Below are positions 6,220 through 55,014 of a DNA stretch of 64,000 nucleotides, in pieces. Source of the DNA: Escherichia coli (lineage in GTDB: Bacteria > Pseudomonadota > Gammaproteobacteria > Enterobacterales > Enterobacteriaceae); NCBI RefSeq assembly GCF_013315695.1, contig NZ_CP054353.1, one strand, 5' to 3'. The notes beneath the pieces were generated by a model. It was not told where the DNA came from. It saw only the letters and a list, made by a program, of their open reading frames with translations, and made no database searches. Both the position numbers and the translations under genes were made by a program. The stretch's first letter is position 1; each line of letters opens with the position of its first letter.

Positions 6220-6597
6220 TCAATACAACTCATTAAGTTTTCTCATCGCTTGTTCCCGTATTGCGCGCGTCTTACCGTTAAGCGCCAGCTGGCGGACTAA
6301 ATCCAGTTCAGGGTTAACAAGCTCTAACGCCAGCAAAGGATCACGTTTCAGCCTCGCCTTCAATACATCAACTGGGAAACGGGGATCATTCATCGCCATA
6401 ATCCACCACTCGGGATCAATTTCTGCCGCTAGTGCCGCAGACGGTGTATGGCGATTGTTAAGTGCGCCGAACTTGAAAAATGTAAGATTGCTTTTCGCCA
6501 GCGTACTCCACCATATACGATCCGGTTGTTTTGCCAGTTTATCCAGTTGCGCTAATGCATCGGAGTCAAGTGCATAATAAACACGTAACGCTTCGTT
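6220..6597 (-). pseudogene. ydbD: 3-prime remnant of ydbD, truncated by IS1
   Basis: Reverse-strand frame is open from the IS1 boundary (6597) to TGA at 6220-6222 (...TNEALRVYYALDSDALAQLDKLAKQPDRIWW...KLNELY*), with no start codon; position matches the gene preceding ynbA in K-12. Confidence 0.6.
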
Positions 6598-6652
6598 GGT
6601 GATGCTGCCAACTTACTGATTTAGTGTATGATGGTGTTTTTGAGGTGCTCCA

Positions 6653-6928
6653 GTGGCTTCTGTTTCTATCAGCTGTCCCTCCTGTTCAGCTACTGACGGG
6701 GTGGTGCGTAACGGCAAAAGCACCGCCGGACATCAGCGCTATCTCTGCTCTCACTGCCGTAAAACATGGCAACTGCAGTTCACTTACACCGCTTCTCAAC
6801 CCGGTACGCACCAGAAAATCATTGATATGGCCATGAATGGCGTTGGATGCCGGGCAACAGCCCGCATTATGGGCGTTGGCCTCAACACGATTTTACGTCA
6901 CTTAAAAAACTCAGGCCGCAGTCGGTAA
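6653..6928 (+). CDS. insA: IS1 InsA (transposition inhibitor / N-terminal part of InsAB transposase)
   Basis: 91-aa [42 protein letters not shown]..., zinc-finger CxxC...CxxC; A6C slippery site ttaaaaaac near its 3-prime end. Confidence 0.95.
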
Positions 6929-7350
6929 CCTCGCGCATACAGCCGGGCAGTGACGTCATCGTCTGCGCGGAAATGGACGAACAGTGGGGCTATGTCGGGG
7001 CTAAATCGCGCCAGCGCTGGCTGTTTTACGCGTATGACAGGCTCCGGAAGACGGTTGTTGCGCACGTATTCGGTGAACGCACTATGGCGACGCTGGGGCG
7101 TCTTATGAGCCTGCTGTCACCCTTTGACGTGGTGATATGGATGACGGATGGCTGGCCGCTGTATGAATCCCGCCTGAAGGGAAAGCTGCACGTAATCAGC
7201 AAGCGATATACGCAGCGAATTGAGCGGCATAACCTGAATCTGAGGCAGCACCTGGCACGGCTGGGACGGAAGTCGCTGTCGTTCTCAAAATCGGTGGAGC
7301 TGCATGACAAAGTCATCGGGCATTATCTGAACATAAAACACTATCAATAA
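6847..7350 (+). CDS. insB: IS1 InsB frame (expressed as InsAB by -1 frameshift)
   Basis: 167-aa ORF in -1 frame relative to insA, ending ...HYLNIKHYQ. Confidence 0.9.
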
Positions 7351-7505
7351 GTTGGAGTCATTACCACTTGAACCGATAATAAACGCAGAAATTCTATTTT
7401 GTAGCTCATTGTTGCCTCCTGTGTGAATTGTTCGAATCTACCAGGCTGCGATGAAAGAAGTCGTGTAGTAGAGAGCTATACCCGCAACAAGCGGGGCAGA
7501 CGTTC

Positions 7506-7829
7506 TTATTTCTGTAACCATTTTCCGTTAATGCCCTGCACATATTCTCCTGATTTAGCGCGAGCTACGAGCTTTTGCCCGGCAAGTTTCGCGATATCAT
7601 CTACCGACACATTATTTTGCTTTGCCAGTTGTTGATAGCTCGCTTTACGTTCGGCATTAATGTCGGTTACTAATTTCTCTGTTTCAGCATCTGTTTTCAG
7701 CGCAACCAGATAACCATAAAATGTTTCCCCTACCCGCCCCTGAGTTCTGGCTTCATCCAGAGTCAATGCCATTACATTGCTGCTTACCAAGCCAACAAGA
7801 AATGCACAAAGAAGTAATGTTCTTTTCAT
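7506..7829 (-). CDS. ydbL: Periplasmic protein YdbL (DUF1318)
   Basis: ORF track 7506..7910; start set at MKRTLLLCAFLVG... signal peptide (107 aa), last gene of ydbH-ynbE-ydbL. Confidence 0.85.
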   Translation of the reverse strand: MKRTLLLCAFLVGLVSSNVMALTLDEARTQGRVGETFYGYLVALKTDAETEKLVTDINAERKASYQQLAKQNNVSVDDIAKLAGQKLVARAKSGEYVQGINGKWLQK

Positions 7830-7836
7830 CATCACC

Positions 7837-8022
7837 TCAAAAAAGATCGCTACGGGTCTCAAGCAGCTCTTCGACATCTTTGTCTGCCTTGATGATGATC
7901 TCATGCTCAATTTTAACGTTCATATTGATAGTGATCGGTTCCTTAGGTGCAGCGACTTCAATGCGAGGCGTACAGCCAACCAGCATAAAAGATGACGTCA
8001 ACGCAGCCAGTAAAATTTTCAT
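7837..8022 (-). CDS. ynbE: Lipoprotein YnbE
   Basis: 61-aa ORF MKILLAALTSSFMLVGC... with lipobox LVGC; overlaps the ydbH stop by 4 nt. Confidence 0.85.
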   Translation of the reverse strand: MKILLAALTSSFMLVGCTPRIEVAAPKEPITINMNVKIEHEIIIKADKDVEELLETRSDLF

Positions 8023-10658
8023 TGTTTTTCCTCACACTCTTTTCCTTGCGGACAGTCATTTCCCGGCAGACGCGCGTTCTGCTCCAGCCATGCCTGGAGA
8101 TTATCGCCAAAGCGTAAACTGCGCCACAGCGTAAAAATATTCTCTTCATGATGGTAATTAAGATTTACCGTACCGCTTTTACCATCAACGCGACTGGTAC
8201 CTGTAATGTTGGCCTGCATGGTTAATAAACCGAGATTATCTAAATTAATTTTTGTCGATGAACGGCTAATTTCCATATAGCGCAACCAGTTAATTGCTGA
8301 ACCCGCGGTCATATTGTCTTTCACCACCGCATCTGCGGTGTCTTTATCCAGCCGCAAGGTCATCGGCCCGCTATTTGCCAGCCAGCCGTCTTTCACTATC
8401 CATTTTTCGTTGTTTAGCCATAACGGCAATGCACCACTAAATGCCCCGGACATGGCGAATTGTTTCGGATTGACGGCGCTAACCAGTTCGCTGGAGGAAA
8501 GATTATTCAGCCGCAACAGCGCCGGGTCATGTTGCGGCATACGTAATTGTTTCATCAGCACGTTACCGCCTAACACATCAACGCTAACATCAGTCAACAG
8601 CAATGGTTCTTCTTCAGTCCACGGATAACGACCTTGCAAATCAGCCGTAATATTTTTCGCTGTCACCAGATTAATCACTTCGGCAATTCGCAACGTAACG
8701 GGGCCGCGAGTCCCCAGATGCCAGGCTCCATCGGCAAAACGGAAAGGCAGGACAAAATCGACACCGTTAACCTGATTATCTGGCATCCAGGCACTACCGC
8801 CTTTCAACACACCGTGCCCTCCCGCGCGGAATCCTTGTTCAGGCGCAGCAGAAAATGCGACCTGGGCATATAGTTCGCCATCGCGTAAGTTCATCTTCCA
8901 GTCGGGTGGCACCAGCGGCTGGAATACGGTCAGTGATTGTTTAGGCCACCAGGCGTTACCGCGCAGACGAATACCGTCCCAGCGACCATTTACCCGAACC
9001 GGGCCAATCTCACCAGCATGTAAATCGCCTTTAAAGAGGAAATACGTCGGATCGCGTCCATCGACGCTAAATTTTAAGGTTGATGGCGGTAACACACTGC
9101 CGCCAGTGAACAGCGTTTGCCCGGCGTCCAGTGACAGCGCGCCGCTAAAGGAGGGATGCTGTGCGTCACGTACCCAGACGACGGGCTTGTCGAGAATTAG
9201 TCGCGGCTTTTCAACCGTCATCGTACCGTATTGTAACTGGTCGAAACCGGTGGAGAGATCGGTCAGCGTAATCGTGCTGTCATGCCACTCACCCTTTCCT
9301 GCGACATCCCAGGTGGCATTCATCGGTGTAAAACTGCCTTTTCCCCAGTAGCGCCACTGCCAGCGGCCAGCGTCAGGGAGAAAATCATTCGCCAGTCCAT
9401 CCATATGCAGCACGAAATCGCCCAGTTCATTTTCATGCGCCTGCAAAATGGCCTGCAAACGTCCGTCAACACCACGTTGGGTGACTTTTACACCCGCTAA
9501 AGGCCAGCGGATTTCATCGATGTCCAGCGAATCAATGACTCTTCCCTTTGAACGAAGTAACGCGCCTGGCTCAAAGGTCAACGTTGGGTCAGACAGACTT
9601 CCACTTAGCTGCGCAGGTAAACGGGCATATAAAATGAGGTCCGCCTGTTTCGCTTCACCGGTCAGTTGCATAGGCAGCTGGCTGTTATCCATGCTTAATT
9701 TTCCTGGGCCAAAATTAAGCACCGCGTTGCCTTTACCCGCTTGCCCCTGGGTCAGCACACTCAGTCGTCCGCTGACCAGAGCGTTCTCGAGCCCTGCCTG
9801 CCAGTTGTCGACTTTGACACCCAGTCGGCCACTCAAAGGAAAACCTGCATACGGCCAGCTCCAGCGACCATCGCTTACGGTCAATTGTTGACGAGTAATT
9901 TGCCACGGCAAATCGAGCAACGGATCGCCGTTATCCCGTGCCAGCACGATCAATTGCCCGCTATTTTCCTGCCAGTCCAGCTCTGCATCCACCAGTGACG
10001 GTTCCTGCGGCAAGTTTAACGTCGCAGTAGCATGCCCACTTACCGGAAGTCCATCCGGCACGAGCGGCATAGTAAATTCCCCCTCCAGTTTAACCGGCGG
10101 CTGATTTTCAAACGCGACGACATCCAGTTCGCTGACTGTAAGTTGTTGCCCTTTCAGCTGGCCTTGAAATTTAACTTTTTCGCCCTGATAACGCAGTTGC
10201 TGGATATCGGAGGTTAATGCGAGAGAGAGTTTTCCCTGCCATTCCTGCCAGGGAGAAAAAATCAGTTTATCGATATTGATCCAAGTGTTAGGCAACATGG
10301 CCTGCCACTGCGCGAGGTTTTTTGGAGCGGCTGGCGATTGCTCCGTCTGCGGCAATTTCGCCAGACAAGTAGAATCAAGTTCTACCGTGCCGACGTTCAA
10401 TAACCAGCGGCTGGGATGTGAAAGGCTGGCGTTGGTGATATGCGCAAGCTGACAATCTCCCACCAGATAACGGAGATCGGGAATGATTAAACCTTTACGC
10501 GTAATGCGTGGGCTTTCATCTAATGCAATACGTGTCCCGAGCGGTAGCCAGATGCCCGCCAGCGTGGGAACCCACAGCCCGAGCGTCATCAGCAGCGTCA
10601 ACGGCACAAGAATAATCAGTAATAACAGCGCGAGAACGGCTTTATATTTACCCAGCAT
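8019..10658 (-). CDS. ydbH: AsmA/TamB-like large envelope protein YdbH
   Basis: 879-aa ORF with N-terminal TM anchor (MLGKYKAVLALLLLIILVPL...); divergent from ldhA as in K-12. Confidence 0.9.
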   Translation of the reverse strand: MLGKYKAVLALLLLIILVPLTLLMTLGLWVPTLAGIWLPLGTRIALDESPRITRKGLIIPDLRYLVGDCQLAHITNASLSHPSRWLLNVGTVELDSTCLAKLPQTEQSPAAPKNLAQWQAMLPNTWINIDKLIFSPWQEWQGKLSLALTSDIQQLRYQGEKVKFQGQLKGQQLTVSELDVVAFENQPPVKLEGEFTMPLVPDGLPVSGHATATLNLPQEPSLVDAELDWQENSGQLIVLARDNGDPLLDLPWQITRQQLTVSDGRWSWPYAGFPLSGRLGVKVDNWQAGLENALVSGRLSVLTQGQAGKGNAVLNFGPGKLSMDNSQLPMQLTGEAKQADLILYARLPAQLSGSLSDPTLTFEPGALLRSKGRVIDSLDIDEIRWPLAGVKVTQRGVDGRLQAILQAHENELGDFVLHMDGLANDFLPDAGRWQWRYWGKGSFTPMNATWDVAGKGEWHDSTITLTDLSTGFDQLQYGTMTVEKPRLILDKPVVWVRDAQHPSFSGALSLDAGQTLFTGGSVLPPSTLKFSVDGRDPTYFLFKGDLHAGEIGPVRVNGRWDGIRLRGNAWWPKQSLTVFQPLVPPDWKMNLRDGELYAQVAFSAAPEQGFRAGGHGVLKGGSAWMPDNQVNGVDFVLPFRFADGAWHLGTRGPVTLRIAEVINLVTAKNITADLQGRYPWTEEEPLLLTDVSVDVLGGNVLMKQLRMPQHDPALLRLNNLSSSELVSAVNPKQFAMSGAFSGALPLWLNNEKWIVKDGWLANSGPMTLRLDKDTADAVVKDNMTAGSAINWLRYMEISRSSTKINLDNLGLLTMQANITGTSRVDGKSGTVNLNYHHEENIFTLWRSLRFGDNLQAWLEQNARLPGNDCPQGKECEEKQ

Positions 10659-27994: not shown

Positions 27995-30595
27995 ATGAGC
28001 ACAAAACCACTCTTCCTGTTACGGAAAGCGAAAAAATCATCCGGTGAACCTGACGTCGTCCTGTGGGCAAGCAACGATTTTGAATCGACCTGTGCCACTC
28101 TGGACTACCTGATCGTTAAGTCAGGTAAAAAACTGAGCAGCTATTTTAAAGCTGTTGCCACGAATTTTCCTGTCGTTAATGACCTGCCCGCTGAAGGTGA
28201 GATCGATTTTACCTGGAGTGAACGCTATCAACTCAGCAAAGACTCCATGACATGGGAACTAAAACCGGGAGCAGCACCAGACAACGCTCACTATCAAGGC
28301 AATACCAACGTCAACGGCGAAGACATGACTGAGATTGAGGAGAATATGCTACTCCCAATTTCTGGCCAGGAACTGCCCATTCGTTGGCTTGCTCAACACG
28401 GCAGCGAAAAACCGGTAACGCACGTTTCACGCGACGGACTCCAGGCATTACACATTGCTCGGGCTGAAGAACTACCGGCTGTTACTGCCCTGGCTGTTTC
28501 CCACAAAACCAGCCTGCTCGACCCGCTGGAAATTCGCGAACTCCACAAACTGGTTCGTGACACTGACAAAGTTTTCCCTAATCCTGGTAATTCAAACCTG
28601 GGACTGATAACTGCTTTTTTCGAAGCATACCTGAACGCTGACTACACCGATCGAGGACTGCTGACAAAAGAGTGGATGAAGGGTAATCGTGTTTCACACA
28701 TCACTCGCACGGCTTCCGGTGCTAATGCTGGCGGCGGAAACCTCACCGATCGCGGCGAAGGTTTCGTACACGATCTGACGTCACTGGCGCGCGACGTAGC
28801 CACTGGCGTACTGGCCCGTTCAATGGATCTGGACATCTATAACCTTCATCCGGCACACGCTAAACGCATTGAGGAAATTATCGCTGAAAATAAACCGCCC
28901 TTTTCTGTTTTCCGCGACAAATTCATCACCATGCCTGGCGGGCTGGATTATTCCCGCGCCATCGTGGTTGCGTCCGTAAAAGAAGCACCAATTGGGATCG
29001 AGGTCATCCCCGCGCACGTCACTGAATATCTGAACAAAGTACTGACTGAAACCGATCATGCCAACCCTGATCCGGAAATCGTGGATATTGCCTGCGGTCG
29101 CTCCTCTGCCCCGATGCCGCAGCGAGTAACAGAAGAAGGAAAACAGGATGATGAAGAAAAACCGCAACCATCTGGAACAACGGCAGTTGAACAGGGAGAG
29201 GCTGAAACAATGGAACCGGACGCAACTGAACATCATCAGGACACGCAGCCGCTGGATGCTCAGTCACAGGTAAATTCTATTGATGCGAAATATCAGGAAC
29301 TGCGGGCAGAACTCCATGAAGCCCGGAAAAACATTCCATCAAAAGATCCTGTCGATGCCGATAAATTGCTTGCTGCATCACGTGGTGAATTTGTTGACGG
29401 AATTAGCGACCCGAACGATCCGAAATGGGTAAAGGGGATCCAGACTCGCGATTGTGTGTACCAGAACCAGCCAGAAACGGAAAAAACCAGCCCGGATATG
29501 AATCAACCTGAGCCAGTAGTGCAACAGGAACCGGAAATAGCCTGCAATGCCTGCGGCCAGACTGGCGGGGATAACTGCCCTGACTGTGGTGCGGTGATGG
29601 GCGACGCAACATACCAGGAAACATTCGATGAAGAGAGTCAGGTTGAAGCTAAGGAAAATGATCCGGAGGAAATGGAAGGCGCTGAACATCCGCACAATGA
29701 GAATGCTGGCAGCGATCCGCATCGCGATTGCAGTGATGAAACTGGCGAAGTCGCAGATCCCGTAATCGTAGAAGACATAGAGCCAGGTATTTATTACGGA
29801 ATTTCGAATGAGAATTACCACGCGGGTCCCGGTGTCAGTAAGTCTCAGCTCGATGACATTGCTGATACTCCGGCACTATATTTGTGGCGTAAAAATGCCC
29901 CCGTTGACACCACAAAGACAAAAACGCTCGATTTAGGAACCGCTTTCCACTGCCGGGTACTTGAACCGGAAGAATTCAGTAACCGCTTTATCGTAGCACC
30001 TGAATTTAACCGCCGTACAAACGCCGGAAAAGAAGAAGAGAAAGCGTTTCTGATGGAATGCGCAAGCACAGGAAAAACAGTTATCACTGCGGAAGAAGGC
30101 CGGAAAATTGAACTCATGTATCAAAGCGTTATGGCTTTGCCGCTGGGGCAATGGCTTGTTGAAAGCGCCGGACACGCTGAATCATCAATTTACTGGGAAG
30201 ATCCTGAAACAGGAATTTTGTGTCGGTGCCGTCCGGACAAAATTATCCCTGAATTTCACTGGATCATGGACGTGAAAACTACGGCGGATATTCAACGATT
30301 CAAAACCGCTTATTACGACTACCGCTATCACGTTCAGGATGCATTCTACAGTGACGGTTATGAAGCACAGTTTGGAGTGCAGCCAACTTTCGTTTTTCTG
30401 GTTGCCAGCACAACTATTGAATGCGGACGTTATCCGGTTGAAATTTTCATGATGGGCGAAGAAGCAAAACTGGCAGGTCAACAGGAATATCACCGCAATC
30501 TGCGAACCCTGTCTGACTGCCTGAATACCGATGAATGGCCAGCTATTAAGACATTATCACTGCCCCGCTGGGCTAAGGAATATGCAAATGACTAA
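27995..30595 (+). CDS. recE: Exodeoxyribonuclease VIII (RecE)
   Basis: 866-aa [44 protein letters not shown]...; full length with the C-terminal nuclease domain; overlaps the recT start by 8 nt. Confidence 0.95.
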
Positions 30596-31397
30596 GCAAC
30601 CACCAATCGCAAAAGCCGATCTGCAAAAAACTCAGGGAAACCGTGCACCAGCAGCAGTTAAAAATAGCGACGTGATTAGTTTTATTAACCAGCCATCAAT
30701 GAAAGAGCAACTGGCAGCAGCTCTTCCACGCCATATGACGGCTGAACGTATGATCCGTATCGCCACCACAGAAATTCGTAAAGTTCCGGCGTTAGGAAAC
30801 TGTGACACTATGAGTTTTGTCAGTGCGATCGTACAGTGTTCACAGCTCGGACTTGAGCCAGGTAGCGCCCTCGGTCATGCATATTTACTGCCTTTTGGTA
30901 ATAAAAACGAAAAGAGCGGTAAAAAGAACGTTCAGCTAATCATTGGCTATCGCGGCATGATTGATCTGGCTCGCCGTTCTGGTCAAATCGCCAGCCTGTC
31001 AGCCCGTGTTGTCCGTGAAGGTGACGAGTTTAGCTTCGAATTTGGCCTTGATGAAAAGTTAATACACCGCCCGGGAGAAAACGAAGATGCCCCGGTTACC
31101 CACGTCTATGCTGTCGCAAGACTGAAAGACGGAGGTACTCAGTTTGAAGTTATGACGCGCAAACAGATTGAGCTGGTGCGCAGCCTGAGTAAAGCTGGTA
31201 ATAACGGGCCGTGGGTAACTCACTGGGAAGAAATGGCAAAGAAAACGGCTATTCGTCGCCTGTTCAAATATCTGCCCGTATCAATTGAGATCCAGCGTGC
31301 AGTATCAATGGATGAAAAGGAACCACTGACAATCGATCCTGCAGATTCCTCTGTATTAACCGGGGAATACAGTGTAATCGATAATTCAGAGGAATAA
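30588..31397 (+). CDS. recT: Single-strand annealing recombinase RecT
   Basis: ORF track 30531..31397; ATG at 30588 gives [35 protein letters not shown]... (269 aa). Confidence 0.95.
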
Positions 31398-31453
31398 TTC
31401 AGCCTGGCGGTGTAATGCACCGCCAACTTGAAATATTTTTTATGAGAAAAATT

Positions 31454-31648
31454 ATGAGATATGACAATGTTAAACCATGTCCATTTTGTGGTTGTCCATC
31501 AGTAACGGTGAAAGTCATTTCAGGATATTACCGAGCGAAGTGTAACGGATGCGAATCCCGAACCGGTTATGGTGGAAGTGAAAAAGAAGCACTCGAAAGA
31601 TGGAATAAACGAACCACTGGAAATAATAACGGAGGTGTTCATGTATAA
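31454..31648 (+). CDS. ralR: Restriction-alleviation protein / type I toxin RalR (Lar)
   Basis: ORF track 31415..31648; ATG at 31454 gives MRYDNVKPCPFCGCPSVTVKVISGYYRAKCNGCESRTGYGG... (64 aa). Confidence 0.85.
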   Translation: MRYDNVKPCPFCGCPSVTVKVISGYYRAKCNGCESRTGYGGSEKEALERWNKRTTGNNNGGVHV

Positions 31649-31829
31649 AATTACCGCCACTATTGAAAAGGAAGGTGGCACTCCTACTAACTGGACAAGA
31701 TATTCAAAATCTAAACTAACGAAATCAGAATGCGAAAAAATGCTCTCAGGTAAAAAAGAAGCAGGCGTTTCCAGAGAGCAGAAAGTAAAACTGATAAATT
31801 TTAATTGCGAGAAACTTCAGTCCTCGTGA
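31641..31829 (+). CDS. ydaC: Rac-prophage protein YdaC
   Basis: ORF track 31569..31829; ATG at 31641 (GGAGG upstream) gives MYKITATIEKEGGTPTNWTRYSKSKL... (62 aa); overlaps the ralR 3-prime end by 8 nt. Confidence 0.7.
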   Translation: MYKITATIEKEGGTPTNWTRYSKSKLTKSECEKMLSGKKEAGVSREQKVKLINFNCEKLQSS

Positions 31830-31928
31830 ATTGCATTGTATTCAAATTAAAACTTCATAGCTGATTATTAATAATCAACATCGGGCGTCAATTTCAGTCT
31901 AACATTGGCGCCTGCCAGAGGTGATGCG

Positions 31929-32144
31929 ATGGCACAAGTAATCTTTAATGAAGAGTGGATGGTTGAATACGGCCTGATGCTTCGCACTGGTCTGGGGGCC
32001 AGACAAATTGAAGCATACCGCCAGAACTGTTGGGTGGAGGGCTTCCACTTCAAACGAGTATCTCCTTTAGGTAAGCCAGACAGCAAACGAGGGATTATCT
32101 GGTACAACTATCCAAAGATAAATCAGTTTATCAAAGACTCATGA
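31929..32144 (+). CDS. xisR: Rac-prophage excisionase
   Basis: ORF track 31905..32144; ATG at 31929 gives [44 protein letters not shown]... (71 aa); stop overlaps the intR start region. Confidence 0.8.
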
Positions 32145-32145
32145 T

Positions 32146-33379
32146 ATGTCTAAATTACCAACAGGTGTCGAGATTAGAGGTAGATACATTCGCATCTGGT
32201 TCATGTTTCGAGGAAAACGATGTCGGGAAACATTAAAAGGCTGGGAGATTACAAACAGTAATATTAAAAAGGCCGGAAATTTAAGAGCGCTGATAGTTCA
32301 TGAAATAAACTCCGGTAAATTTGAGTATTTAAGACGTTTTCCCCAGTCCAGCACTGGGGCAAAAATGGTGATAACGAGAGTCATAAAAACGTTCGGAGAG
32401 CTTTGTGATATCTGGACAAAAATTAAAGAGACAGAGTTAACAACAAACACAATAAAGAAAACGAAATCACAATTAAAAACACTCAGAATAATAATTTGTG
32501 AAAGTACCCTGATATCACATATTCGTTATAGCGATATCTTAAACTACCGGAATGAACTGCTGCATGGAGAAACGCTTTACCTGGATAATCCAAGATCCAA
32601 CAAAAAAGGAAGAACCGTGCGCACAGTTGATAACTATATCGCCCTGCTCTGTTCGCTGTTACGTTTTGCGTATCAGTCGGGATTTATATCAACCAAACCA
32701 TTTGAAGGAGAAAAAATTACAGCGAAACAGAATAAAGCCTGATCCGTTATCTAAAACAGAATTCAATGCATTAATGGAAAGTGAAAAAGGACAGAGCCAG
32801 AACATGTGGAAATTTGCAGTTTACTCAGGACTTCGTCACGGGGAACTGGCAGCTCTGGCGTGGGAGGATGTGGATCTCGAAAAGGGAATAGTGAATGTCA
32901 GAAGAAACCTGACGATACTTGATATGTTCGGTCCCCCAAAAACAAATGCCGGGATCCGGACAGTAACACTACTGCAGCCTGCTCTTGAAGCACTGAAGGA
33001 GCAATACAAACTGACCGGGCATCATCGCAAAAGCGAAATCACCTTTTATCATCGGGAGTACGGCAGAACCGAAAAGCAAAAACTGCATTTTGTTTTCATG
33101 CCCAGGGTGTGTAACGGAAAACAAAAACCTTATTACTCGGTAAGCAGTTTGGGGGCAAGGTGGAATGCAGCAGTAAAACGTGCTGGTATTCGCCGCCGTA
33201 ATCCGTACCATACGCGGCATACTTTTGCCTGCTGGCTGTTGACGGCAGGAGCGAACCCGGCATTTATAGCCAGCCAAATGGGGCATGAAACTGCGCAGAT
33301 GGTGTATGAAATTTACGGTATGTGGATTGATGACATGAACGACGAACAGATAGCCATGTTGAATGCGCGGTTATCATAG
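32146..33379 (+). pseudogene. intR: Rac-prophage tyrosine integrase, apparently split by a +/-1 frameshift near 32709-32716
   Basis: ORF 32146..32742 (198 aa, ...STKPFEGEKITAKQNKA*) and ORF 32552..33379 carry the N- and C-terminal parts (catalytic ...HTRHTFACWLL...) in adjacent frames; frames switch in the run gagaaaaaatt; the sum of the parts is about 411 codons. Confidence 0.7.
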
Positions 33380-33430
33380 TTGCAAAGTTTGCCCCCAATT
33401 TGCCCCATTTAGTACCAGAGAACTGAAATA

Positions 33431-39729: not shown

Positions 39730-40638
39730 TTAACTTTGCAGATAGCCGCATTCTCGCCGAAATTGCGTGATTAATGACGCGGTCAGTGGTGTCTGGCGAC
39801 TATCACGCCGCTGAATCAAATAATAGGTCGCTTTCGGTAAAATTTCGCTAACCGGCAACATCACCAGCCCCTGTCCGTGCAAGGGATCGCAGCCCATTTC
39901 TTCAGGTAGTATGCTGAGAAAATCGCTTTTTGCCACCAGACTGATACAGGCTGAGAACGTCTCGCAGACTACGCCGACCTGTGGCGTTTGCGCCTGCTCG
40001 TCAAGCAATTCACTCAACTGTTTGTAGTAGCTGCCGTGTGGCGTCGGCATTGTCCAGCTGTAGTCCAGTAACTGTTTGATCGAACGGGCACCAATGGCGG
40101 GATGTCCCGGGCGGCAAAAGATCGCGAATTGCTTTTCCAGTAATTTCTCAAAAGTAAATTCGTGGTCGTAGGGTCCCTGATAATAGGTATTGATGGTGAA
40201 ATCCAGTTCTCCCTGGCGCAATTCATTAATCATCGACACCAGTTGCCCTTCCATAATGCGTACTTTTACCTGTGGATGCTGCTGATGAAAACGAGATATG
40301 ACAGCTGGCATCAGACTGCGGGAAATACTGGCCCCCATGCCGATATTAATTTGCCCTGCCAGTTGCCCTTGTCGTTGGCGAATATCCTCTTGCGCTGCGC
40401 GCAGCTCTTCAAGAATAAGACTGGCGTGCTGATAAAAACTTTCACCGGCATCAGTTAACGTCACGCCTTTACTACGGCGAAAAAAGAGTTGCGCCGCTAA
40501 CCCTTCTTCCAGCTCCTGAATAGATTTACTCAGTGCCGGTTGCGACATATTCAACATTCGGCTCGCTCCGCGAATGCTGCCCTGACGAGCCACTTCAACA
40601 AAAGCCCGAATTTGATGAATTTTTACCTGAAAAGCCAT
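39730..40638 (-). CDS. abgR: LysR-family regulator of the abg operon
   Basis: 302-aa ORF with N-terminal helix-turn-helix; divergent from abgA. Confidence 0.9.
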   Translation of the reverse strand: MAFQVKIHQIRAFVEVARQGSIRGASRMLNMSQPALSKSIQELEEGLAAQLFFRRSKGVTLTDAGESFYQHASLILEELRAAQEDIRQRQGQLAGQINIGMGASISRSLMPAVISRFHQQHPQVKVRIMEGQLVSMINELRQGELDFTINTYYQGPYDHEFTFEKLLEKQFAIFCRPGHPAIGARSIKQLLDYSWTMPTPHGSYYKQLSELLDEQAQTPQVGVVCETFSACISLVAKSDFLSILPEEMGCDPLHGQGLVMLPVSEILPKATYYLIQRRDSRQTPLTASLITQFRRECGYLQS

Positions 40639-47756: not shown

Positions 47757-48014
47757 TTACTGCTCTTCGCCGCCAAGAAAATAAATTCCCAACGGTATTG
47801 CCAGCAACACAGTAAAGACCAGGCTATAAACAAAAATCATCGATGACTGAATCACATACATTGATGTCGTCCACTCAGACAGCGGAATATTGTACTGTTC
47901 TATAACGCCGCCGATGGTCGCGCGAGTCACAACCGACGCCGCAATAATGAAAACCGCCAACAAACCAAAGAGAAATTTCTTCCCTTTCGCTGACTTCAGT
48001 TTCGCCATAATCAT
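47757..48014 (-). CDS. ynaJ: Small inner-membrane protein YnaJ
   Basis: 85-aa ORF MIMAKLKSAKGKKFLFGLLAVFIIAASVV... with two TM helices. Confidence 0.85.
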   Translation of the reverse strand: MIMAKLKSAKGKKFLFGLLAVFIIAASVVTRATIGGVIEQYNIPLSEWTTSMYVIQSSMIFVYSLVFTVLLAIPLGIYFLGGEEQ

Positions 48015-48257
48015 GATGTAATCCTTGTGCAGACAAATTTCTTGTTACCTAAACGTAACAATACCATGACATTTCACTCTTGTCTGCTCTGAAAACCTCA
48101 CCTCTTAGCTGGATTTACAATCAATGCATTGATTTGTTAGCTAATGTTGCTACTTACTTCCCTGACTATTGATGATCTGAATGAATTGTCGCGGTAAAAT
48201 AGCCCCGCCAGGGGTTTCCGGCATGACGACAATTATCTGGAGGAGCCTGATAAAACA

Positions 48258-49289
48258 ATGATCGCTGAACTGTTTACAAATAATGCGCTTAATCTGGTCA
48301 TTATTTTCGGTAGCTGCGCAGCATTGATTCTGATGAGCTTTTGGTTTCGCCGTGGAAATCGTAAAAGAAAAGGATTTTTATTCCATGCGGTGCAATTTTT
48401 AATCTACACCATAATTATTAGTGCTGTTGGTAGCATCATTAACTATGTTATAGAAAACTATAAACTCAAATTTATCACCCCAGGCGTTATCGATTTTATC
48501 TGTACGTCCCTGATTGCGGTTATTCTGACGATTAAGCTATTTCTGCTGATTAATCAGTTTGAAAAACAGCAGATTAAAAAAGGTCGCGATATCACCAGTG
48601 CGCGGATCATGTCGCGCATTATCAAAATCACCATTATTGTGGTGCTTGTTCTGCTTTATGGCGAACATTTCGGCATGAGCCTTTCTGGCTTGTTGACCTT
48701 TGGTGGTATTGGTGGTCTGGCTGTCGGTATGGCCGGTAAAGATATTCTGAGTAACTTCTTTTCCGGGATTATGCTCTATTTCGACCGTCCTTTCAGTATT
48801 GGCGACTGGATCCGTTCACCGGACAGAAATATCGAAGGTACAGTAGCGGAAATTGGCTGGCGAATTACCAAAATTAAGACCTTTGATAATCGTCCATTGT
48901 ACGTACCGAACTCGCTGTTTTCGTCGATCAGCGTAGAAAATCCTGGACGAATGACCAACCGGCGCATTACCACGACCATTGGTTTACGTTATGAGGATGC
49001 GGCAAAAGTGGGCGTTATTGTCGAAGCCGTACGTGAGATGCTGAAAAATCACCCGGCCATCGACCAGCGACAAACCTTACTGGTTTATTTCAACCAGTTT
49101 GCTGATTCGTCATTAAATATTATGGTTTATTGCTTTACCAAAACCACGGTATGGGCTGAATGGCTTGCTGCACAGCAAGACGTTTATTTGAAGATTATCG
49201 ATATTGTACAGTCACACGGCGCGGACTTTGCCTTCCCCAGCCAGACGCTGTATATGGATAACATTACACCGCCGGACCAGGGTCGCTAA
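48258..49289 (+). CDS. ynaI: MscS-family mechanosensitive channel YnaI
   Basis: 343-aa ORF with N-terminal TM helices and the MscS beta-domain. Confidence 0.9.
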
Positions 49290-49339: not shown

Positions 49340-50953
49340 TCAATGCTTCACAATATACATAGTCCGACTGTACGCCACATCTTCAGGGTTATTAATGGGA
49401 TAACCTTTCAGCCACGGCTTGATTAATCGTCCATTGGTATATTGATAAATTGGTGCAATCGGTGCTTGCTCCATGAGGATTTTTTCTGCCGCGTTGTAAT
49501 CGGCATTACGCGCTTTAACGGTATTTTCCATCGATGCCTGGGCCAGAACTTTGTCATATGCCGGATTGTTAAAGCGTGAAATATTCCCGGAATGCGTTGA
49601 CGTTAATAATGTCAGGAAAGTGGAGGGTTCATTATAATCCCCTACCCACGAGGCTCGGATAACATCAAAATTGCCGGTGTTACGGCTATCGATATAGGTT
49701 TTCCATTCCTGATTTTGCAATTTAACATCTACGCCAAGGTTCTTTTTCCACATTGATGCTACAGCAATCGCAATTTTTTGATGGTTTTCTGAAGTGTTAT
49801 ACAAAAGCGTCAGCTTCAGCGGTTTTTGCGGACCATAACCAGCTGCGCTCAACAAAGTTTTTGCCTGCGCATTCAGTTCTTCCTGACTCATTTGTTCAAA
49901 CGGCGAAGGTTCCGGCGTAAATCCCGCGGTAACATCTGGTGTAAAATGCCACGCTGGCTTTTCGCCCGTCCCCAACACTTTTTCGGTCATCAGGCGGCGA
50001 TCTATCGTCATACTTAATGCCAGACGAACGCGCTGATCTGCCGTCGGCCCTTTTTGCGTGTTAAACGCATAATAATAGGTCCCGAGCTGCGGCGGCGTAT
50101 AAACCTGCCCCGGAATATCCTTCAACAGCTTCTGATACATATTTTTCGGGAAGGATTCGGTGATATCAATATCCCCCGCGAGGTAACGCTTAGTGGCTGC
50201 GGATTCCTGATTAATTGGCAGGAAGGTCACTTTTTGCAGTACCGTTTTGGCGTTATCCCAATAATGGGTATTCGGCACCACGACCAGTTTTTCATTGACT
50301 ACGCGCTCTTTAAGAACATAAGCGCCATTGCCGATCAGATTTCCGGGTTTCGTCCACTCTTTACTGCTTTCTACGTTGGCTTTTTGCACCGGGAAGAAGG
50401 CAAAGTTAGCGGTTAAATTCACAAACCACGGCAACGGTTTATCAAGCTGGATTTTCAAAGTATGGGCATCAACTGCGGTGACGCCAAGCTGGTCAGGCGC
50501 GGCTTTACCATCAATAATCGCCTGTGCGTTGTTGATTCCCGCCAGCGCGGCAAACCATGCAAATGGCGATAGCGTTTTCGGGTCCACCAGACGTTGCCAG
50601 CTGTAGACAAAATCTTGCGCCGTTACCGGTGTGCCATCCGCCCATTTTGCGTTATCGCGCAGGGTAAAAGTCCAGATACGGTTGTCATTACTTTTCCACT
50701 GAGTCGCAACGCCGGGGACAATCTCCCCTTTCTCGTTCTGATTCACCAGTCCTTCAAACAGATCGCGAATGACCTGAATCTCTGGCAGACCCACGGCTTT
50801 AGCGGGATCCAGCGACGCTGGCTCATCTTTAATGTGGCGCACCAGCTCCTGCTTCTCTGCCAGTACTGTGCCGCTCGGAACTTCAGCAGCATACGAAAGA
50901 GAAATGCTGCTGACCAACAGCGCACAACACGTGACTGAAACAGAGTGCTTCAT
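49340..50953 (-). CDS. mppA: Murein tripeptide ABC-transporter periplasmic binding protein
   Basis: ORF track 49340..50974; ATG at 50951-50953 gives MKHSVSVTCCALLVSSISLSYA... (537 aa), OppA-like. Confidence 0.9.
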   Translation of the reverse strand: MKHSVSVTCCALLVSSISLSYAAEVPSGTVLAEKQELVRHIKDEPASLDPAKAVGLPEIQVIRDLFEGLVNQNEKGEIVPGVATQWKSNDNRIWTFTLRDNAKWADGTPVTAQDFVYSWQRLVDPKTLSPFAWFAALAGINNAQAIIDGKAAPDQLGVTAVDAHTLKIQLDKPLPWFVNLTANFAFFPVQKANVESSKEWTKPGNLIGNGAYVLKERVVNEKLVVVPNTHYWDNAKTVLQKVTFLPINQESAATKRYLAGDIDITESFPKNMYQKLLKDIPGQVYTPPQLGTYYYAFNTQKGPTADQRVRLALSMTIDRRLMTEKVLGTGEKPAWHFTPDVTAGFTPEPSPFEQMSQEELNAQAKTLLSAAGYGPQKPLKLTLLYNTSENHQKIAIAVASMWKKNLGVDVKLQNQEWKTYIDSRNTGNFDVIRASWVGDYNEPSTFLTLLTSTHSGNISRFNNPAYDKVLAQASMENTVKARNADYNAAEKILMEQAPIAPIYQYTNGRLIKPWLKGYPINNPEDVAYSRTMYIVKH

Positions 50954-51135
50954 AAGTTTCCCTCTAACCGACATTAAAATTGATGCGTAATTATTTGTTT
51001 CGCCTTAAAGAAATGCAAACAACTTCCATCAAAAAAGTGATACAAGATCGATAACATAGCGTTGAAGAAAAGGATTTGATAATCCGCAAAATTTGCACAA
51101 CACTGCCTGTAATACTTCCTGAACCAGAGACGATC

Positions 51136-51864
51136 ATGACCGTAACTCGCCCACGCGCCGAACGCGGCGCATTTCCGCCCGGTACAGAACATTACGGACG
51201 TTCATTATTGGGCGCGCCGTTAATCTGGTTTCCGGCCCCTGCAGCCAGTCACGAAAGTGGTTTGATTCTGGCTGGCACTCACGGTGATGAAAACTCTTCG
51301 ATCGTCACGCTCTCCTGTGCTCTGCGGACTTTGACACCGTCTTTGCGCCGCCATCATGTGGTGCTGTGTGTGAATCCTGACGGCTGCCAGTTAGGGTTAC
51401 GGGCCAATGCTAATGGTGTGGATTTAAACCGAAACTTTCCGGCAGCGAACTGGAAGGAAGGTGAAACAGTTTATCGCTGGAACAGCGCCGCTGAAGAACG
51501 TGATGTCGTTTTACTGACAGGTGGCAAACCTGGCTCCGAACCTGAAACCCAGGCGCTGTGCCAACTTATACACCGCATTCAACCTGCCTGGGTGGTCTCA
51601 TTCCACGATCCGCTGGCCTGTATTGAAGATCCCAGACACAGCGAATTAGGTGAATGGCTGGCCCAGGCGTTTGAATTGCCTCTGGTAACCAGCGTCGGTT
51701 ATGAAACACCTGGCTCTTTCGGCAGTTGGTGTGCAGATCTCAACTTGCATTGCATCACCGCAGAGTTTCCACCCATCTCCTCCGACGAAGCCAGCGAAAA
51801 ATATCTCTTTGCGATGGCAAACTTGCTGCGCTGGCATCCTAAAGATGCAATTCGCCCGTCGTGA
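51136..51864 (+). CDS. mpaA: Murein peptide amidase A (gamma-D-Glu-Dap amidase, M14 family)
   Basis: ORF track 51076..51864; ATG at 51136 gives MTVTRPRAERGAFPPGTEHYGRSLLG... (242 aa) with zinc-ligand HGDE motif. Confidence 0.9.
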   Translation: MTVTRPRAERGAFPPGTEHYGRSLLGAPLIWFPAPAASHESGLILAGTHGDENSSIVTLSCALRTLTPSLRRHHVVLCVNPDGCQLGLRANANGVDLNRNFPAANWKEGETVYRWNSAAEERDVVLLTGGKPGSEPETQALCQLIHRIQPAWVVSFHDPLACIEDPRHSELGEWLAQAFELPLVTSVGYETPGSFGSWCADLNLHCITAEFPPISSDEASEKYLFAMANLLRWHPKDAIRPS

Positions 51865-52804
51865 ACTGAAGCGCCGGTTCCACATCTACCGCCAGCCAGG
51901 TCGGTCCGTCAAGATCGGCGAAACTGACCTGCGGCACCAGCGGTAAAGCGGCGCTAATGGCACGAGAGGTACACAACATGCAGCCCAGCATCAGACGAAA
52001 ACCTTGTGCACGCGCTTCAGTCGCCAGCGCCAGCGCTTCCGTCAGACCACCGGTTTTATCAAGCTTAATGTTAACCATCTCATAGCGCCCTTTCAGCGCC
52101 TTCAGATTGCTACGAGTATGACAACTTTCATCAGCACAAATCGGTAACGGATGAATAAAATTCTCCAGCGCCGCATCGTCCTGCGCAGAAAGCGGTTGTT
52201 CAAGCATCGCAACGCCTAAATCTGCCAATAGCTGGCAACGCGCCGCCAACCCTTCTGCACGCCAGGATTCATTTGCATCAACGATCAGCGTCGCATCGGG
52301 CACAGCGGTGCGAATTGCCACCATCCGCTCACTGATAAGATGGTTATCCAGCTTCACTTTCAGTAATTTCGCGCCTGCCTGCCAGAGTGTTGATGCACTA
52401 TTGGCCATCTGATCAGGCGTACCGATGACTATCGTCTGTGCCGTGGTGACTGTCTCGGGAAGCGTTATGCCGATCAAAGCAGCCAGCGATTGCTGCTGTT
52501 TTCGCGCCGCCAGATCCCACAATGCACAATCCAGCGCATTACGTGCTGCGCCGGCAGGGAGGATTTTTTGCAACTCCTCCCGTGTCAGCCCTTTCTCTAA
52601 TTGCGGCACGACGCTCATAATTTGCGCCATTACCGAGGCATCACTTTCTCCATAACGCGGATACGGCGTGCATTCACCGGTGCCTTTAATACCTTCTTCT
52701 TCCAGTTCAACCACCACCACGCGCGCTTCACTGCGACTTCCCCGAGCAATCACAAACGGGGTATGTAAGGGCCAGGCCTCCTCAAATACCTTAACGGTTC
52801 TCAT
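51839..52804 (-). CDS. ycjG: L-Ala-D/L-Glu epimerase (enolase superfamily)
   Basis: ORF track 51839..52846; ATG at 52802-52804 gives MRTVKVFEEAWPLHTPFVIARGSR... (321 aa); 26-nt convergent overlap with mpaA. Confidence 0.9.
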   Translation of the reverse strand: MRTVKVFEEAWPLHTPFVIARGSRSEARVVVVELEEEGIKGTGECTPYPRYGESDASVMAQIMSVVPQLEKGLTREELQKILPAGAARNALDCALWDLAARKQQQSLAALIGITLPETVTTAQTIVIGTPDQMANSASTLWQAGAKLLKVKLDNHLISERMVAIRTAVPDATLIVDANESWRAEGLAARCQLLADLGVAMLEQPLSAQDDAALENFIHPLPICADESCHTRSNLKALKGRYEMVNIKLDKTGGLTEALALATEARAQGFRLMLGCMLCTSRAISAALPLVPQVSFADLDGPTWLAVDVEPALQFTTGELHL

Positions 52805-52922
52805 CTTTACTCCTTGTTGTCGCGGTGGTCTGCGGATTAAGCGCAAATAGCGTTTGCTGTGTTATTGACAGTTAGCATAAACTAGGTGTGACGTTAACTA
52901 TATGTAAACAGGAAAGATAATC

Positions 52923-53429
52923 ATGTCACAAACCGTTCATTTCCAGGGCAACCCGGTTACAGTCGCCAATTCCATCCCGCAGGCGGGTAGCAAAGCGCAG
53001 ACTTTTACTCTCGTGGCAAAAGATCTGTCTGACGTCACCCTCGGTCAGTTTGCGGGTAAACGCAAAGTGCTGAACATTTTCCCGAGTATTGATACCGGTG
53101 TTTGCGCCGCATCAGTACGTAAGTTTAACCAACTGGCAACCGAGATCGACAACACCGTTGTGCTGTGTATCTCTGCCGATCTGCCGTTCGCCCAGTCTCG
53201 TTTCTGCGGCGCAGAAGGTCTGAACAACGTTATCACCCTCTCCACTTTCCGTAACGCTGAATTCCTGCAAGCCTACGGTGTGGCAATTGCTGATGGCCCA
53301 CTGAAAGGTCTGGCAGCGCGTGCCGTTGTGGTTATTGATGAAAATGACAATGTGATTTTCAGCCAGCTGGTGGATGAAATCACCACCGAGCCGGATTACG
53401 AAGCAGCTCTGGCTGTACTGAAAGCATAA
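52923..53429 (+). CDS. tpx: Thiol peroxidase (atypical 2-Cys peroxiredoxin)
   Basis: 168-aa [22 protein letters not shown]... with peroxidatic Cys in IDTGVC. Confidence 0.97.
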
Positions 53430-53432
53430 GTT

Positions 53433-53468
53433 AATATGCCTGATGGTGTTGCACCATCAGGCATATTC
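53433..53468. terminator. Bidirectional terminator between tpx and tyrR
   Basis: 15-bp perfect stem atatgcctgatggtg / caccatcaggcatat with 3-nt loop. Confidence 0.6.
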
Positions 53469-53472
53469 ACGC

Positions 53473-55014
53473 TTACTCTTCGTTCTTCTTCTGACTCAGA
53501 CCATATTCCCGCAACTTATTGGCAATCGCGGTATGTGAAACGCCGAGACGTTTTGCCAGTTTGCGCGTGCTGGGATAATTGCGATAAAGCTGGGTTAATA
53601 CCGAGCGTTCAAAACGGCTGGTGATTTCGTCCAGCGAACCTTCCATCGCATCTTCGCCCACGGCTACCGTTGCGGCGTCATAATCCGGCAACAAAATATC
53701 CTGTGGACGCAGCTCATAACCGTCCAGTTGTGTCAGTGCACGATAGATAGCGTTCTTTAACTGCCGCACATTTCCCGGCCACGCATAACGCGTAAGTACA
53801 GTATTCAGATCAGCGGCCAGTTTCGGACGCGGCACGCCCTGCTCGTCGGCAAAGCGGGCGACGAACAGCTCGGTTAACGGCATGATGTCCTGCGGACAGT
53901 CACGTAGCGGCGGCAGATTGAGCGTCAACACGTTCAGACGATAATAGAGATCTTCACGGAACACGCCTTTTTGCACCAGTTCGACCAGATTCTTCTGCGT
54001 AGCACAAATCACCCGCACATCGACATGCACCTCATGGTCTTCGCCAACCCGACGGAAGGTGCCATCATTAAGGAAACGCAGTAATTTCGCCTGCATCCGT
54101 GGTGACATTTCCCCTATTTCATCCAACAGCACCGAACCACCGTTCGCCTGCTCAAAGAACCCTTTCTTCCCTTCCGGAGCATGACCAAACAGTTCACTCT
54201 CGACCGCATCTTCCGGTATGGACGCACAGTTCAGCGCCAGGTAAGGTTTGCTCGCTCTGGGGCTTGCCTGATGACAGGCGTAGGCAAAGAGATCTTTTCC
54301 GGTGCCGGTATCACCCGTAATCAGCAGTGGCGCGCTTAGCATCGCCAGTTTCTGCGCCTGTTCGACAACATGCTTCATTTTCGGGCTGACGGCGACAATT
54401 TGACTAAAGGCGCTGACGTCCTGGGCAGCGACATTTTGCAACTGACGGCCCATACGAATCGTTGATCGCAGCATCACCACCGCACCGGTCAGGACGTGTT
54501 GATCATTTTCATCCTGAAGATAAACAGGCGTAATCTCCATCAGGAAATTCTGCCCATTAATAACGACATGCTCGTTATGCGAATCTTGCGGTTCGCTTTC
54601 CAGCCAGCGTAAAAAATTAAAGCCGTTAATCAATTGCGCGGCGGTATGGTTGCGCAGGCGATCCAATTTTTGCCCAAAAAGCTGACAGCTCGCCGGGTTC
54701 GCCATATCCACTTTGCTTTTCATATCGACAGAAAGCACAGGTTCAGGCAACGCCTCCAGTAACGCGCTCAACGCCAGATGCTCACGTTCGGAAGGCATCC
54801 ACGGGACAGTACGCACATCGGTAACACCTGCAATACGGCGTATTTCGGCCATCAGAGTGCTGAAACTCTCAAACTCCAGTTCAGCAAAATTGAGGTAGAT
54901 TCGCCCAATGGGGTCAATCTCAATACCGCGTAAATCAATGCCTCTTAGCACGAGTAGATCGAGTAATTCGCGGGTCAGACCGAGTCGGTCTTCACAAAAG
55001 ACTTCCAGACGCAT
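53473..55014 (-). CDS. tyrR: Aromatic amino-acid regulator TyrR (sigma-54-type AAA+ domain)
   Basis: ORF track 53473..55041; ATG at 55012-55014 gives MRLEVFCEDRLGLTRELLDLLVLRGIDL... (513 aa). Confidence 0.95.
   Translation of the reverse strand: MRLEVFCEDRLGLTRELLDLLVLRGIDLRGIEIDPIGRIYLNFAELEFESFSTLMAEIRRIAGVTDVRTVPWMPSEREHLALSALLEALPEPVLSVDMKSKVDMANPASCQLFGQKLDRLRNHTAAQLINGFNFLRWLESEPQDSHNEHVVINGQNFLMEITPVYLQDENDQHVLTGAVVMLRSTIRMGRQLQNVAAQDVSAFSQIVAVSPKMKHVVEQAQKLAMLSAPLLITGDTGTGKDLFAYACHQASPRASKPYLALNCASIPEDAVESELFGHAPEGKKGFFEQANGGSVLLDEIGEMSPRMQAKLLRFLNDGTFRRVGEDHEVHVDVRVICATQKNLVELVQKGVFREDLYYRLNVLTLNLPPLRDCPQDIMPLTELFVARFADEQGVPRPKLAADLNTVLTRYAWPGNVRQLKNAIYRALTQLDGYELRPQDILLPDYDAATVAVGEDAMEGSLDEITSRFERSVLTQLYRNYPSTRKLAKRLGVSHTAIANKLREYGLSQKKNEE

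Follow-up and report, generated by a model that had tools for sequence, protein, structure and literature searches.

Probable loss of an imported pgrR cassette between mppA and mpaA in a lineage of Escherichia coli

In the 64-kb stretch of Escherichia coli DNA analysed here (hereafter the window), the peptidoglycan-recycling genes mppA and mpaA stood back to back, with only a short non-coding spacer between them (Table 1). The start codon of mppA occupied the complement of 50951-50953 and the ATG of mpaA 51136-51138, which leaves exactly 182 bp between the two. The directly divergent arrangement and its spacing, as given in a preliminary description of this DNA, were confirmed. On one side the locus was bordered by fnr, uspE, ynaJ and ynaI, and on the other by ycjG, tpx, tyrR and ycjF. 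None of MppA, MpaA and YcjG was truncated, and all three showed 99-100% identity to their counterparts in GN03139, the closest cassette-bearing strain, or to reference proteins. MppA shared 99% identity with the MppA of both GN03139 and K-12; MpaA was 100% identical to that of GN03139 and matched its NCBIfam family with 476 bits (cutoff 157). Four further genomes, MS 21-1 among them, were 99.9-100% identical to the window around the locus, and MSB1_4I was 99.991% identical to it across 34.7 kb. In the 99.9-100% identical genomes, the RefSeq names of the pair were also mppA and mpaA.

Table 1. Features of the mppA-mpaA locus, in positions of the window
Feature	Position	Strand	Description	Basis
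Patch of 20 mismatches to GN03139	49160..50922		within mppA	mismatch maps
mppA	49340..50953	-	murein tripeptide ABC transporter substrate-binding protein; intact, 537 aa	ORF list
mppA-mpaA spacer	50954..51135		182 bp, non-coding; collinear with, and equal in length to, the spacer of other Escherichia species
Predicted sigma-70 promoter of mppA	50990..51019	-	-35 TTTGCA at 51019-51014, 18-nt spacer, -10 AATAAT at 50995-50990	promoter scan
30-bp repeat, single copy (deletion junction)	51011..51040		AAATGCAAACAACTTCCATCAAAAAAGTGA	overlap of two flank alignments to K-12 and GN03139
Two conserved blocks upstream of mpaA	51074..51106	+	ATTTGAT at 51074-51080; TTTGCACAACACTGC at 51092-51106
mpaA	51136..51864	+	murein tripeptide amidase; intact, 242 aa	NCBIfam NF007897
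ycjG	51839..52804	-	L-Ala-D/L-Glu epimerase; intact

According to the preliminary description, a regulator gene (pgrR), ycjY and two gene fragments lie between mppA and mpaA in K-12, and this region is absent here. The gene order given for K-12 was right: MG1655 has the order mpaA-ymjC-ymjD-ycjY-pgrR-mppA, with 2,628 bp between the two start codons, not 182 bp. Compared with the K-12-type locus, the window keeps the order and orientation of ynaI, mppA, mpaA, ycjG, tpx and tyrR, with a nucleotide identity of 97-99%, and the upstream sequences are shared over 87 bp for mppA and 125 bp for mpaA. However, it is without pgrR, ycjY, ymjD and ymjC, it carries one copy of a 30-bp repeat and not two, and it has no PgrR-controlled ycjY promoter upstream of mpaA. 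The missing DNA corresponds to a cassette made up of ycjY, another hydrolase gene and an NmrA-type SDR gene, with pgrR divergent from them. A tblastn search of the 64-kb window found no copy of PgrR, YcjY or the SDR protein, the sole match being a 26%-identical LysR paralogue at 40222-40623. The 182-bp spacer and this search together confirmed that the pgrR/ycjY region is absent from the locus.

Where the cassette is present, its content differs among strains. The mppA-mpaA gap measured 4,173 bp in O55:H7, 3,293 bp in GN03139, 2,628 bp in K-12 and about 1.5 kb in SCU-124. GN03139 carries pgrR, ycjY and an intact SDR gene of 212 aa. O55:H7 has in addition the second alpha/beta hydrolase gene, which is frameshifted, and in SCU-124 and similar genomes pgrR and ycjY are both truncated. 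These versions indicate that the cassette is decaying through other, independent deletions and that the K-12 version is itself reduced.

The compact layout was found in 173 of 5,426 complete E. coli genomes (about 3%), which belong to several unrelated lineages; a stricter search for sequences spanning the junction retained 165. At least 80% of the pgrR gene was present in 5,208 of the 5,426 genomes, and no pgrR match at all was obtained in 183. As the last number is close to the sum of the 173 compact genomes and eight others without any of this locus, the compact genomes do not just carry pgrR at another place, and no copy was seen elsewhere in the window either. These counts indicate that pgrR is absent from genomes with the compact layout. 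About 125 of the compact genomes formed one allele class, which includes the strains ST648 and IMT16316, and smaller classes stood at 98.6%, 97.2% and about 95% identity. The allele of the window occurred in only five of the 5,426 genomes, with an identical junction in all five, which points to a recent, lineage-specific event. One strain, E. coli MFDS1019527 (L089, 1-3514), had a prophage (with a tyrosine integrase, NinB and other genes) inserted in mppA; a 66-bp 5′ fragment of the gene was left and the spacer was otherwise compact.

We also surveyed the locus outside E. coli by scanning for MpaA in one genome per GTDB species and examining 80 loci. In nearly all of the approximately 70 other Enterobacteriaceae species, mppA and mpaA were directly divergent with no pgrR between them. 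This was the case in E. albertii, E. whittamii and three cryptic or divergent Escherichia lineages, and also in Citrobacter, Enterobacter, Klebsiella, Raoultella, Kluyvera, Leclercia, Lelliottia, Kosakonia, Pluralibacter and others. The spacer was exactly 182 bp in five of the six other Escherichia species (the five with an empty site); in other genera it was mostly 176-203 bp, with an overall range of 138-316 bp. The presence of the compact pair across the outgroups implied that the compact layout is the ancestral, family-wide architecture. The window resembles this ancestral pair in that its genes are adjacent and divergent, with the same 182 bp as in the five other Escherichia species, and in that the conserved blocks TAATTATTTGT, AAATGCAAA, ATTTGAT and TTTGCACAACACTGC lie at the same positions. 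A few loci departed from the general pattern. Salmonella enterica subsp. arizonae and diarizonae (L025 and L026, approximately 6560-10000) had about 3.1-3.4 kb between mppA and mpaA; this interval had no PgrR match, and therefore holds different DNA, inserted into this spacer or close to it. Citrobacter sp. 18056 (L047) had about 9 kb between the two genes.

Homologues of PgrR with 88-89% identity were found in Klebsiella, Raoultella, Kluyvera, Enterobacter, Citrobacter and Salmonella. In Raoultella ornithinolytica and Klebsiella aerogenes, a pgrR-type LysR gene was divergent from a five-gene operon encoding a DLH-type hydrolase, a second alpha/beta hydrolase, an NmrA-type SDR, an adh_short dehydrogenase and an Old Yellow Enzyme. 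The DLH-type hydrolase was 92% identical to YcjY and the NmrA-type SDR 82-83% identical to the E. coli SDR. The O55:H7 cassette was collinear with the first four genes of this six-gene module over 3.6 kb, at 79% nucleotide identity. The module occurred in three different contexts in Klebsiella and Raoultella, one of them an integrative conjugative element. On a Klebsiella aerogenes contig (L099, 1-12900), it lay inside a conjugative element beside genes with TraG, TraC, RAQPRD and DUF3262/2976/3487 domains. In Klebsiella and Raoultella the module is not sited between mppA and mpaA, and it has two further genes that were kept in no E. coli version examined; it is the source type of the cassette that is wholly absent from the window. 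From these comparisons, the cassette is a fragment of a mobile six-gene hydrolase/reductase module that was acquired horizontally and is decaying, and pgrR appears to be the cognate regulator of this imported module rather than an ancestral partner of mppA and mpaA. Judging by its domains, we can only guess that the module had a function of the detoxification or catabolism type. A fragment of QueH (epoxyqueuosine reductase) was noticed between pgrR and the mppA-side repeat in O55:H7 (L093, 2616-2690) and DJH_137urine (L095, 4144-4236). It suggests that the cassette once lay beside queH in its source; the fragment was absent from the Klebsiella and Raoultella modules examined.

The only species other than E. 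coli with the cassette was Escherichia sp. E1V33 (L006, 7431-9906), a relative of E. whittamii, which had the truncated K-12-type version. Compared with K-12, its cassette was 97-98% identical and the flanks only 85-90%, a difference implying that the E1V33 copy was acquired horizontally. The left crossover fell within the 30-bp repeat. On the right side, an E. coli-like tract extended at least 35 bp past the right repeat, and the crossover lay about 100 bp beyond the other repeat copy. Integration of a circle was set aside for this copy because the E. coli-like sequence runs past the right repeat.

The deletion junction of the window could be located precisely. Against both K-12 and GN03139, the window aligned in two blocks that overlapped by exactly 30 bp, at the repeat of Table 1. 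Cassette-bearing strains have two copies of this 30-mer in direct orientation: one borders the mppA promoter region, and the other is 125 bp ahead of mpaA. Two copies with 28-30 identical bases out of 30 were found in K-12 (28/30), GN03139 (29/30), MN06021, SCU-101, O139, NMBU_W05E18 and E1V33, and in GN03139 the two copies agree over 25 consecutive bases. The window has a single copy, with no other trace of the cassette. The 30-mer was also single-copy in all seven of the outgroup and cryptic Escherichia that were typed. With these single copies and with spacers of 182 bp in five Escherichia species, it follows that the duplication arose together with the insertion. The compact 182-bp spacing is thus ancestral, and the cassette was inserted with a 30-bp duplication of its target.

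The two copies could be told apart by sequence type. The CCGGC type (TTCCGGCAAAA) was found in the outgroups and in the mpaA-side copy of most cassette-bearing strains, and the CCATC type (TTCCATCA) in the mppA-side copy of all eight cassette-bearing E. coli examined. The single copy of the window is of the CCATC type and has the mppA-side G at 51015. In this it differs from the ancestral pair, CCATC being otherwise specific to cassette-bearing E. coli. The other compact E. coli alleles sampled were all CCGGC, except for a different variant in AR_0013, and none was CCATC. It seems, therefore, that the site in the window descends from an occupied site and was restored, rather than never having been occupied.

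The flanking sequences gave a similar picture. The right flank (51041-53429, 2.4 kb) was 100.000% identical to that of the cassette-bearing GN03139, compared with 98.3-98.7% for the compact alleles of ST648, M160133 and AR_0013 (98.7% for the ST648 type). In neighbour-joining trees of the two flanks, the window grouped with the cassette-bearing GN03139 and SCU-101 on both sides. The compact alleles were polyphyletic and occupied at least four separate places within E. coli. The compact strains ST648, IMT16316, M160133 and AR_0013 have the same 182-bp spacer and gene content as the window, and the ST648 type differs from it at only two of 211 positions around the spacer. However, apart from their different junction type, their flanks are 1-3% divergent and their positions in the trees are different. 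On these grounds the other compact lineages appear to be separate events or to have separate histories. The ST648-type allele, with its CCGGC repeat, may be a separate deletion or a never-occupied site, between which the repeat type does not distinguish. For the window, repeat typing, flank identity and flank trees taken together argue for a secondary loss, the direction of change being judged from 14 E. coli loci and outgroups.

We thus consider it quite probable that the cassette was inserted in an ancestor of E. coli and later lost from the window lineage by recombination between the 30-bp repeats. The acquired cassette would have entered the ancestral mppA-mpaA spacer and duplicated 30 bp of its target. 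In the window lineage, recombination between the two direct repeats would then have removed the whole cassette, about 3.1 kb if the closest cassette-bearing relative is taken as the measure, leaving one repeat copy and restoring the ancestral spacer to the base. Alternatively, an empty allele might have been imported by homologous recombination from a donor of, for example, the ST648 type, or the cassette might never have been carried, with no deletion in the window lineage in either case. Compact alleles are carried by about 3% of E. coli and also occur in sister species, and E1V33 is an instance of the locus being exchanged between lineages. The mppA gene of the window also differs from that of GN03139 by the patch of mismatches listed in Table 1. 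The right end of this patch is within 90 bp of the junction, as would be expected of an imported tract, and zero mismatches were found at 48122-49159 and at 51016-54219. Recombination with foreign DNA may have made the deletion or brought it in; otherwise, mppA may have been replaced independently, either in the lineage of the window or in that of GN03139. The position of the patch next to the junction is the main reason why we retain an imported empty allele as an explanation, though an unlikely one. Such an import would have to account for a CCATC repeat where the other sampled compact alleles and the outgroups have CCGGC or another non-CCATC sequence, and for a right flank without any difference from a cassette-bearing strain across 2.4 kb. 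It would also need a right crossover inside a 12-bp interval of the repeat. In addition, the mppA allele of the window was found in no sampled compact genome outside its own five-genome clade.

A site-specific mobile module, with repeats resembling attL and attR and with loss through excision by a recombinase, was considered as well. A duplication of 30 bp is too long for the typical target duplications of transposases, the cassette was lost exactly in several lineages, a 97-98% identical copy occupies the same site in the divergent E1V33, and the parent module occurs inside an integrative conjugative element. However, no integrase or transposase was annotated in any cassette version examined (K-12, GN03139, MN06021, SCU-101, O139, O55:H7, NMBU_W05E18, DJH_137urine and SCU-124). 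The E. coli-like tract beyond the repeat in E1V33 fits homologous recombination of a linear fragment and not the integration of a circle. Moreover, an identical repeat of 25-30 bp is already sufficient for RecA-dependent or slippage-mediated deletion. Excision by a dedicated recombinase therefore seems highly improbable. It would be just as surprising if the cassette and its repeats were a mobilisable module without a recombinase of its own, excising as a circle and re-entering empty mppA/mpaA spacers, where its regulator captures the neighbouring peptidoglycan-recycling genes. Were this so, the window, the ST648-type lineage and E1V33 would each capture one moment in a history of recurrent loss and gain at a single site embedded in a promoter. 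Repeats around a segment can in principle also collapse in poor assemblies and produce a compact layout artificially. But a 30-bp repeat is far shorter than a read, 165-173 complete genomes are compact and 183 have no pgrR anywhere. The probability of an artefact is practically nil, and we rejected it on the grounds that five independent complete genomes have the same junction. Recombination between the repeats thus remains our preferred explanation for the window.

We also searched the spacer for conserved elements. Across 73 spacers (the window and 72 other species), four blocks were at least 85-90% conserved, at 50988-50998, 51011-51019, 51074-51080 and 51092-51106. The only sigma-70-like promoter found in the spacer was that predicted for mppA, and both of its hexamers fall in conserved blocks. 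As the predicted -35 hexamer is inside the repeat, the occupied and the empty forms would both keep an intact mppA promoter, and mppA would still be transcribed from it after the deletion. The scan found no consensus sigma-70 site for mpaA. The two blocks nearest to mpaA were kept in occupied and empty forms alike, and we infer that they are candidates for an ancestral mpaA promoter or operator. No Rfam family was found in 50700-51400 at E ≤ 1. In GN03139, no terminator-like site was found on the coding strand between the SDR gene and mpaA; with no mpaA promoter found either, read-through into mpaA is neither favoured nor disfavoured.

PgrR is reportedly described as a peptidoglycan recycling switch, and its K-12 regulon is said to come from work by Shimada, Yamazaki and Ishihama in 2013, as cited in PMC5934670 and PMC10505187. 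The preliminary description had concluded that mppA and mpaA lost their dedicated regulator. The loss itself was supported, being secondary in the window lineage according to repeat typing and flank identity. The idea that PgrR was the native, dedicated regulator of the pair was not. It is contradicted by the near-general absence of pgrR between mppA and mpaA in the other Enterobacteriaceae species, and by the targets given in the K-12 regulon table, which are ycjY-ymjDC-mpaA, ycjG and ycjXF-tyrR, with mppA not listed in that table (PMC5934670). PgrR is also negatively autoregulated (PMC10505187). In a compact strain, mpaA would probably be expressed only from the adjacent 125 bp, as in other enterobacteria, and not from the PgrR-repressed ycjY promoter. 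Transcription of mpaA from this conserved stretch would take place instead of, or besides, read-through from the ycjY promoter. By analogy with K-12, mpaA, ycjG and ycjXF-tyrR would be free of PgrR repression in a compact strain, and the loss of this repression would be the sole effect to be expected. These regulatory consequences are drawn from the K-12 regulon table and from promoter-like motifs.

The loss described here is a routine repeat-mediated deletion of a decaying accessory cassette, that is, ordinary gene-content variation and no new kind of system. The polymorphism is already visible in annotated public genomes and its direct importance is small. The deletion brings back the ancestral layout of the family and leaves the conserved elements of the spacer untouched, and no pathway is stripped of its native control. 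It is mildly unexpected that the K-12 "peptidoglycan recycling regulator" appears to be an import, whose position upstream of mpaA is confined to E. coli and a single sampled relative. This restricted distribution implies that the regulation of mpaA and ycjG known from K-12 may not hold in other enterobacteria. Natural pgrR-null lineages, among them the window's clade of five genomes and the far larger group of the ST648 type, are ready material for testing the contribution of PgrR.

Some other features were seen in the window. In the annotation of near-identical genomes, there was no gene between ynaJ and ynaI (region 48014-48258); K-12 MG1655 has an IS5 copy (insH) beside ynaI. At approximately 29340-33380, the MSB1_4I annotation mapped onto the window placed a Rac-type prophage remnant beside ttcA, with recE, recT, ralR, xisR and a frameshifted intR. 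At 61524-63278, the same annotation has ycjT (kojibiose phosphorylase) without its N-terminus abutting a fragment of a carbohydrate ABC permease gene without its C-terminus. By comparison with the K-12 gene order, the part of the ycj sugar operon that lies between ycjO and ycjT seems to have been deleted, which would be a second deletion in the window relative to K-12.
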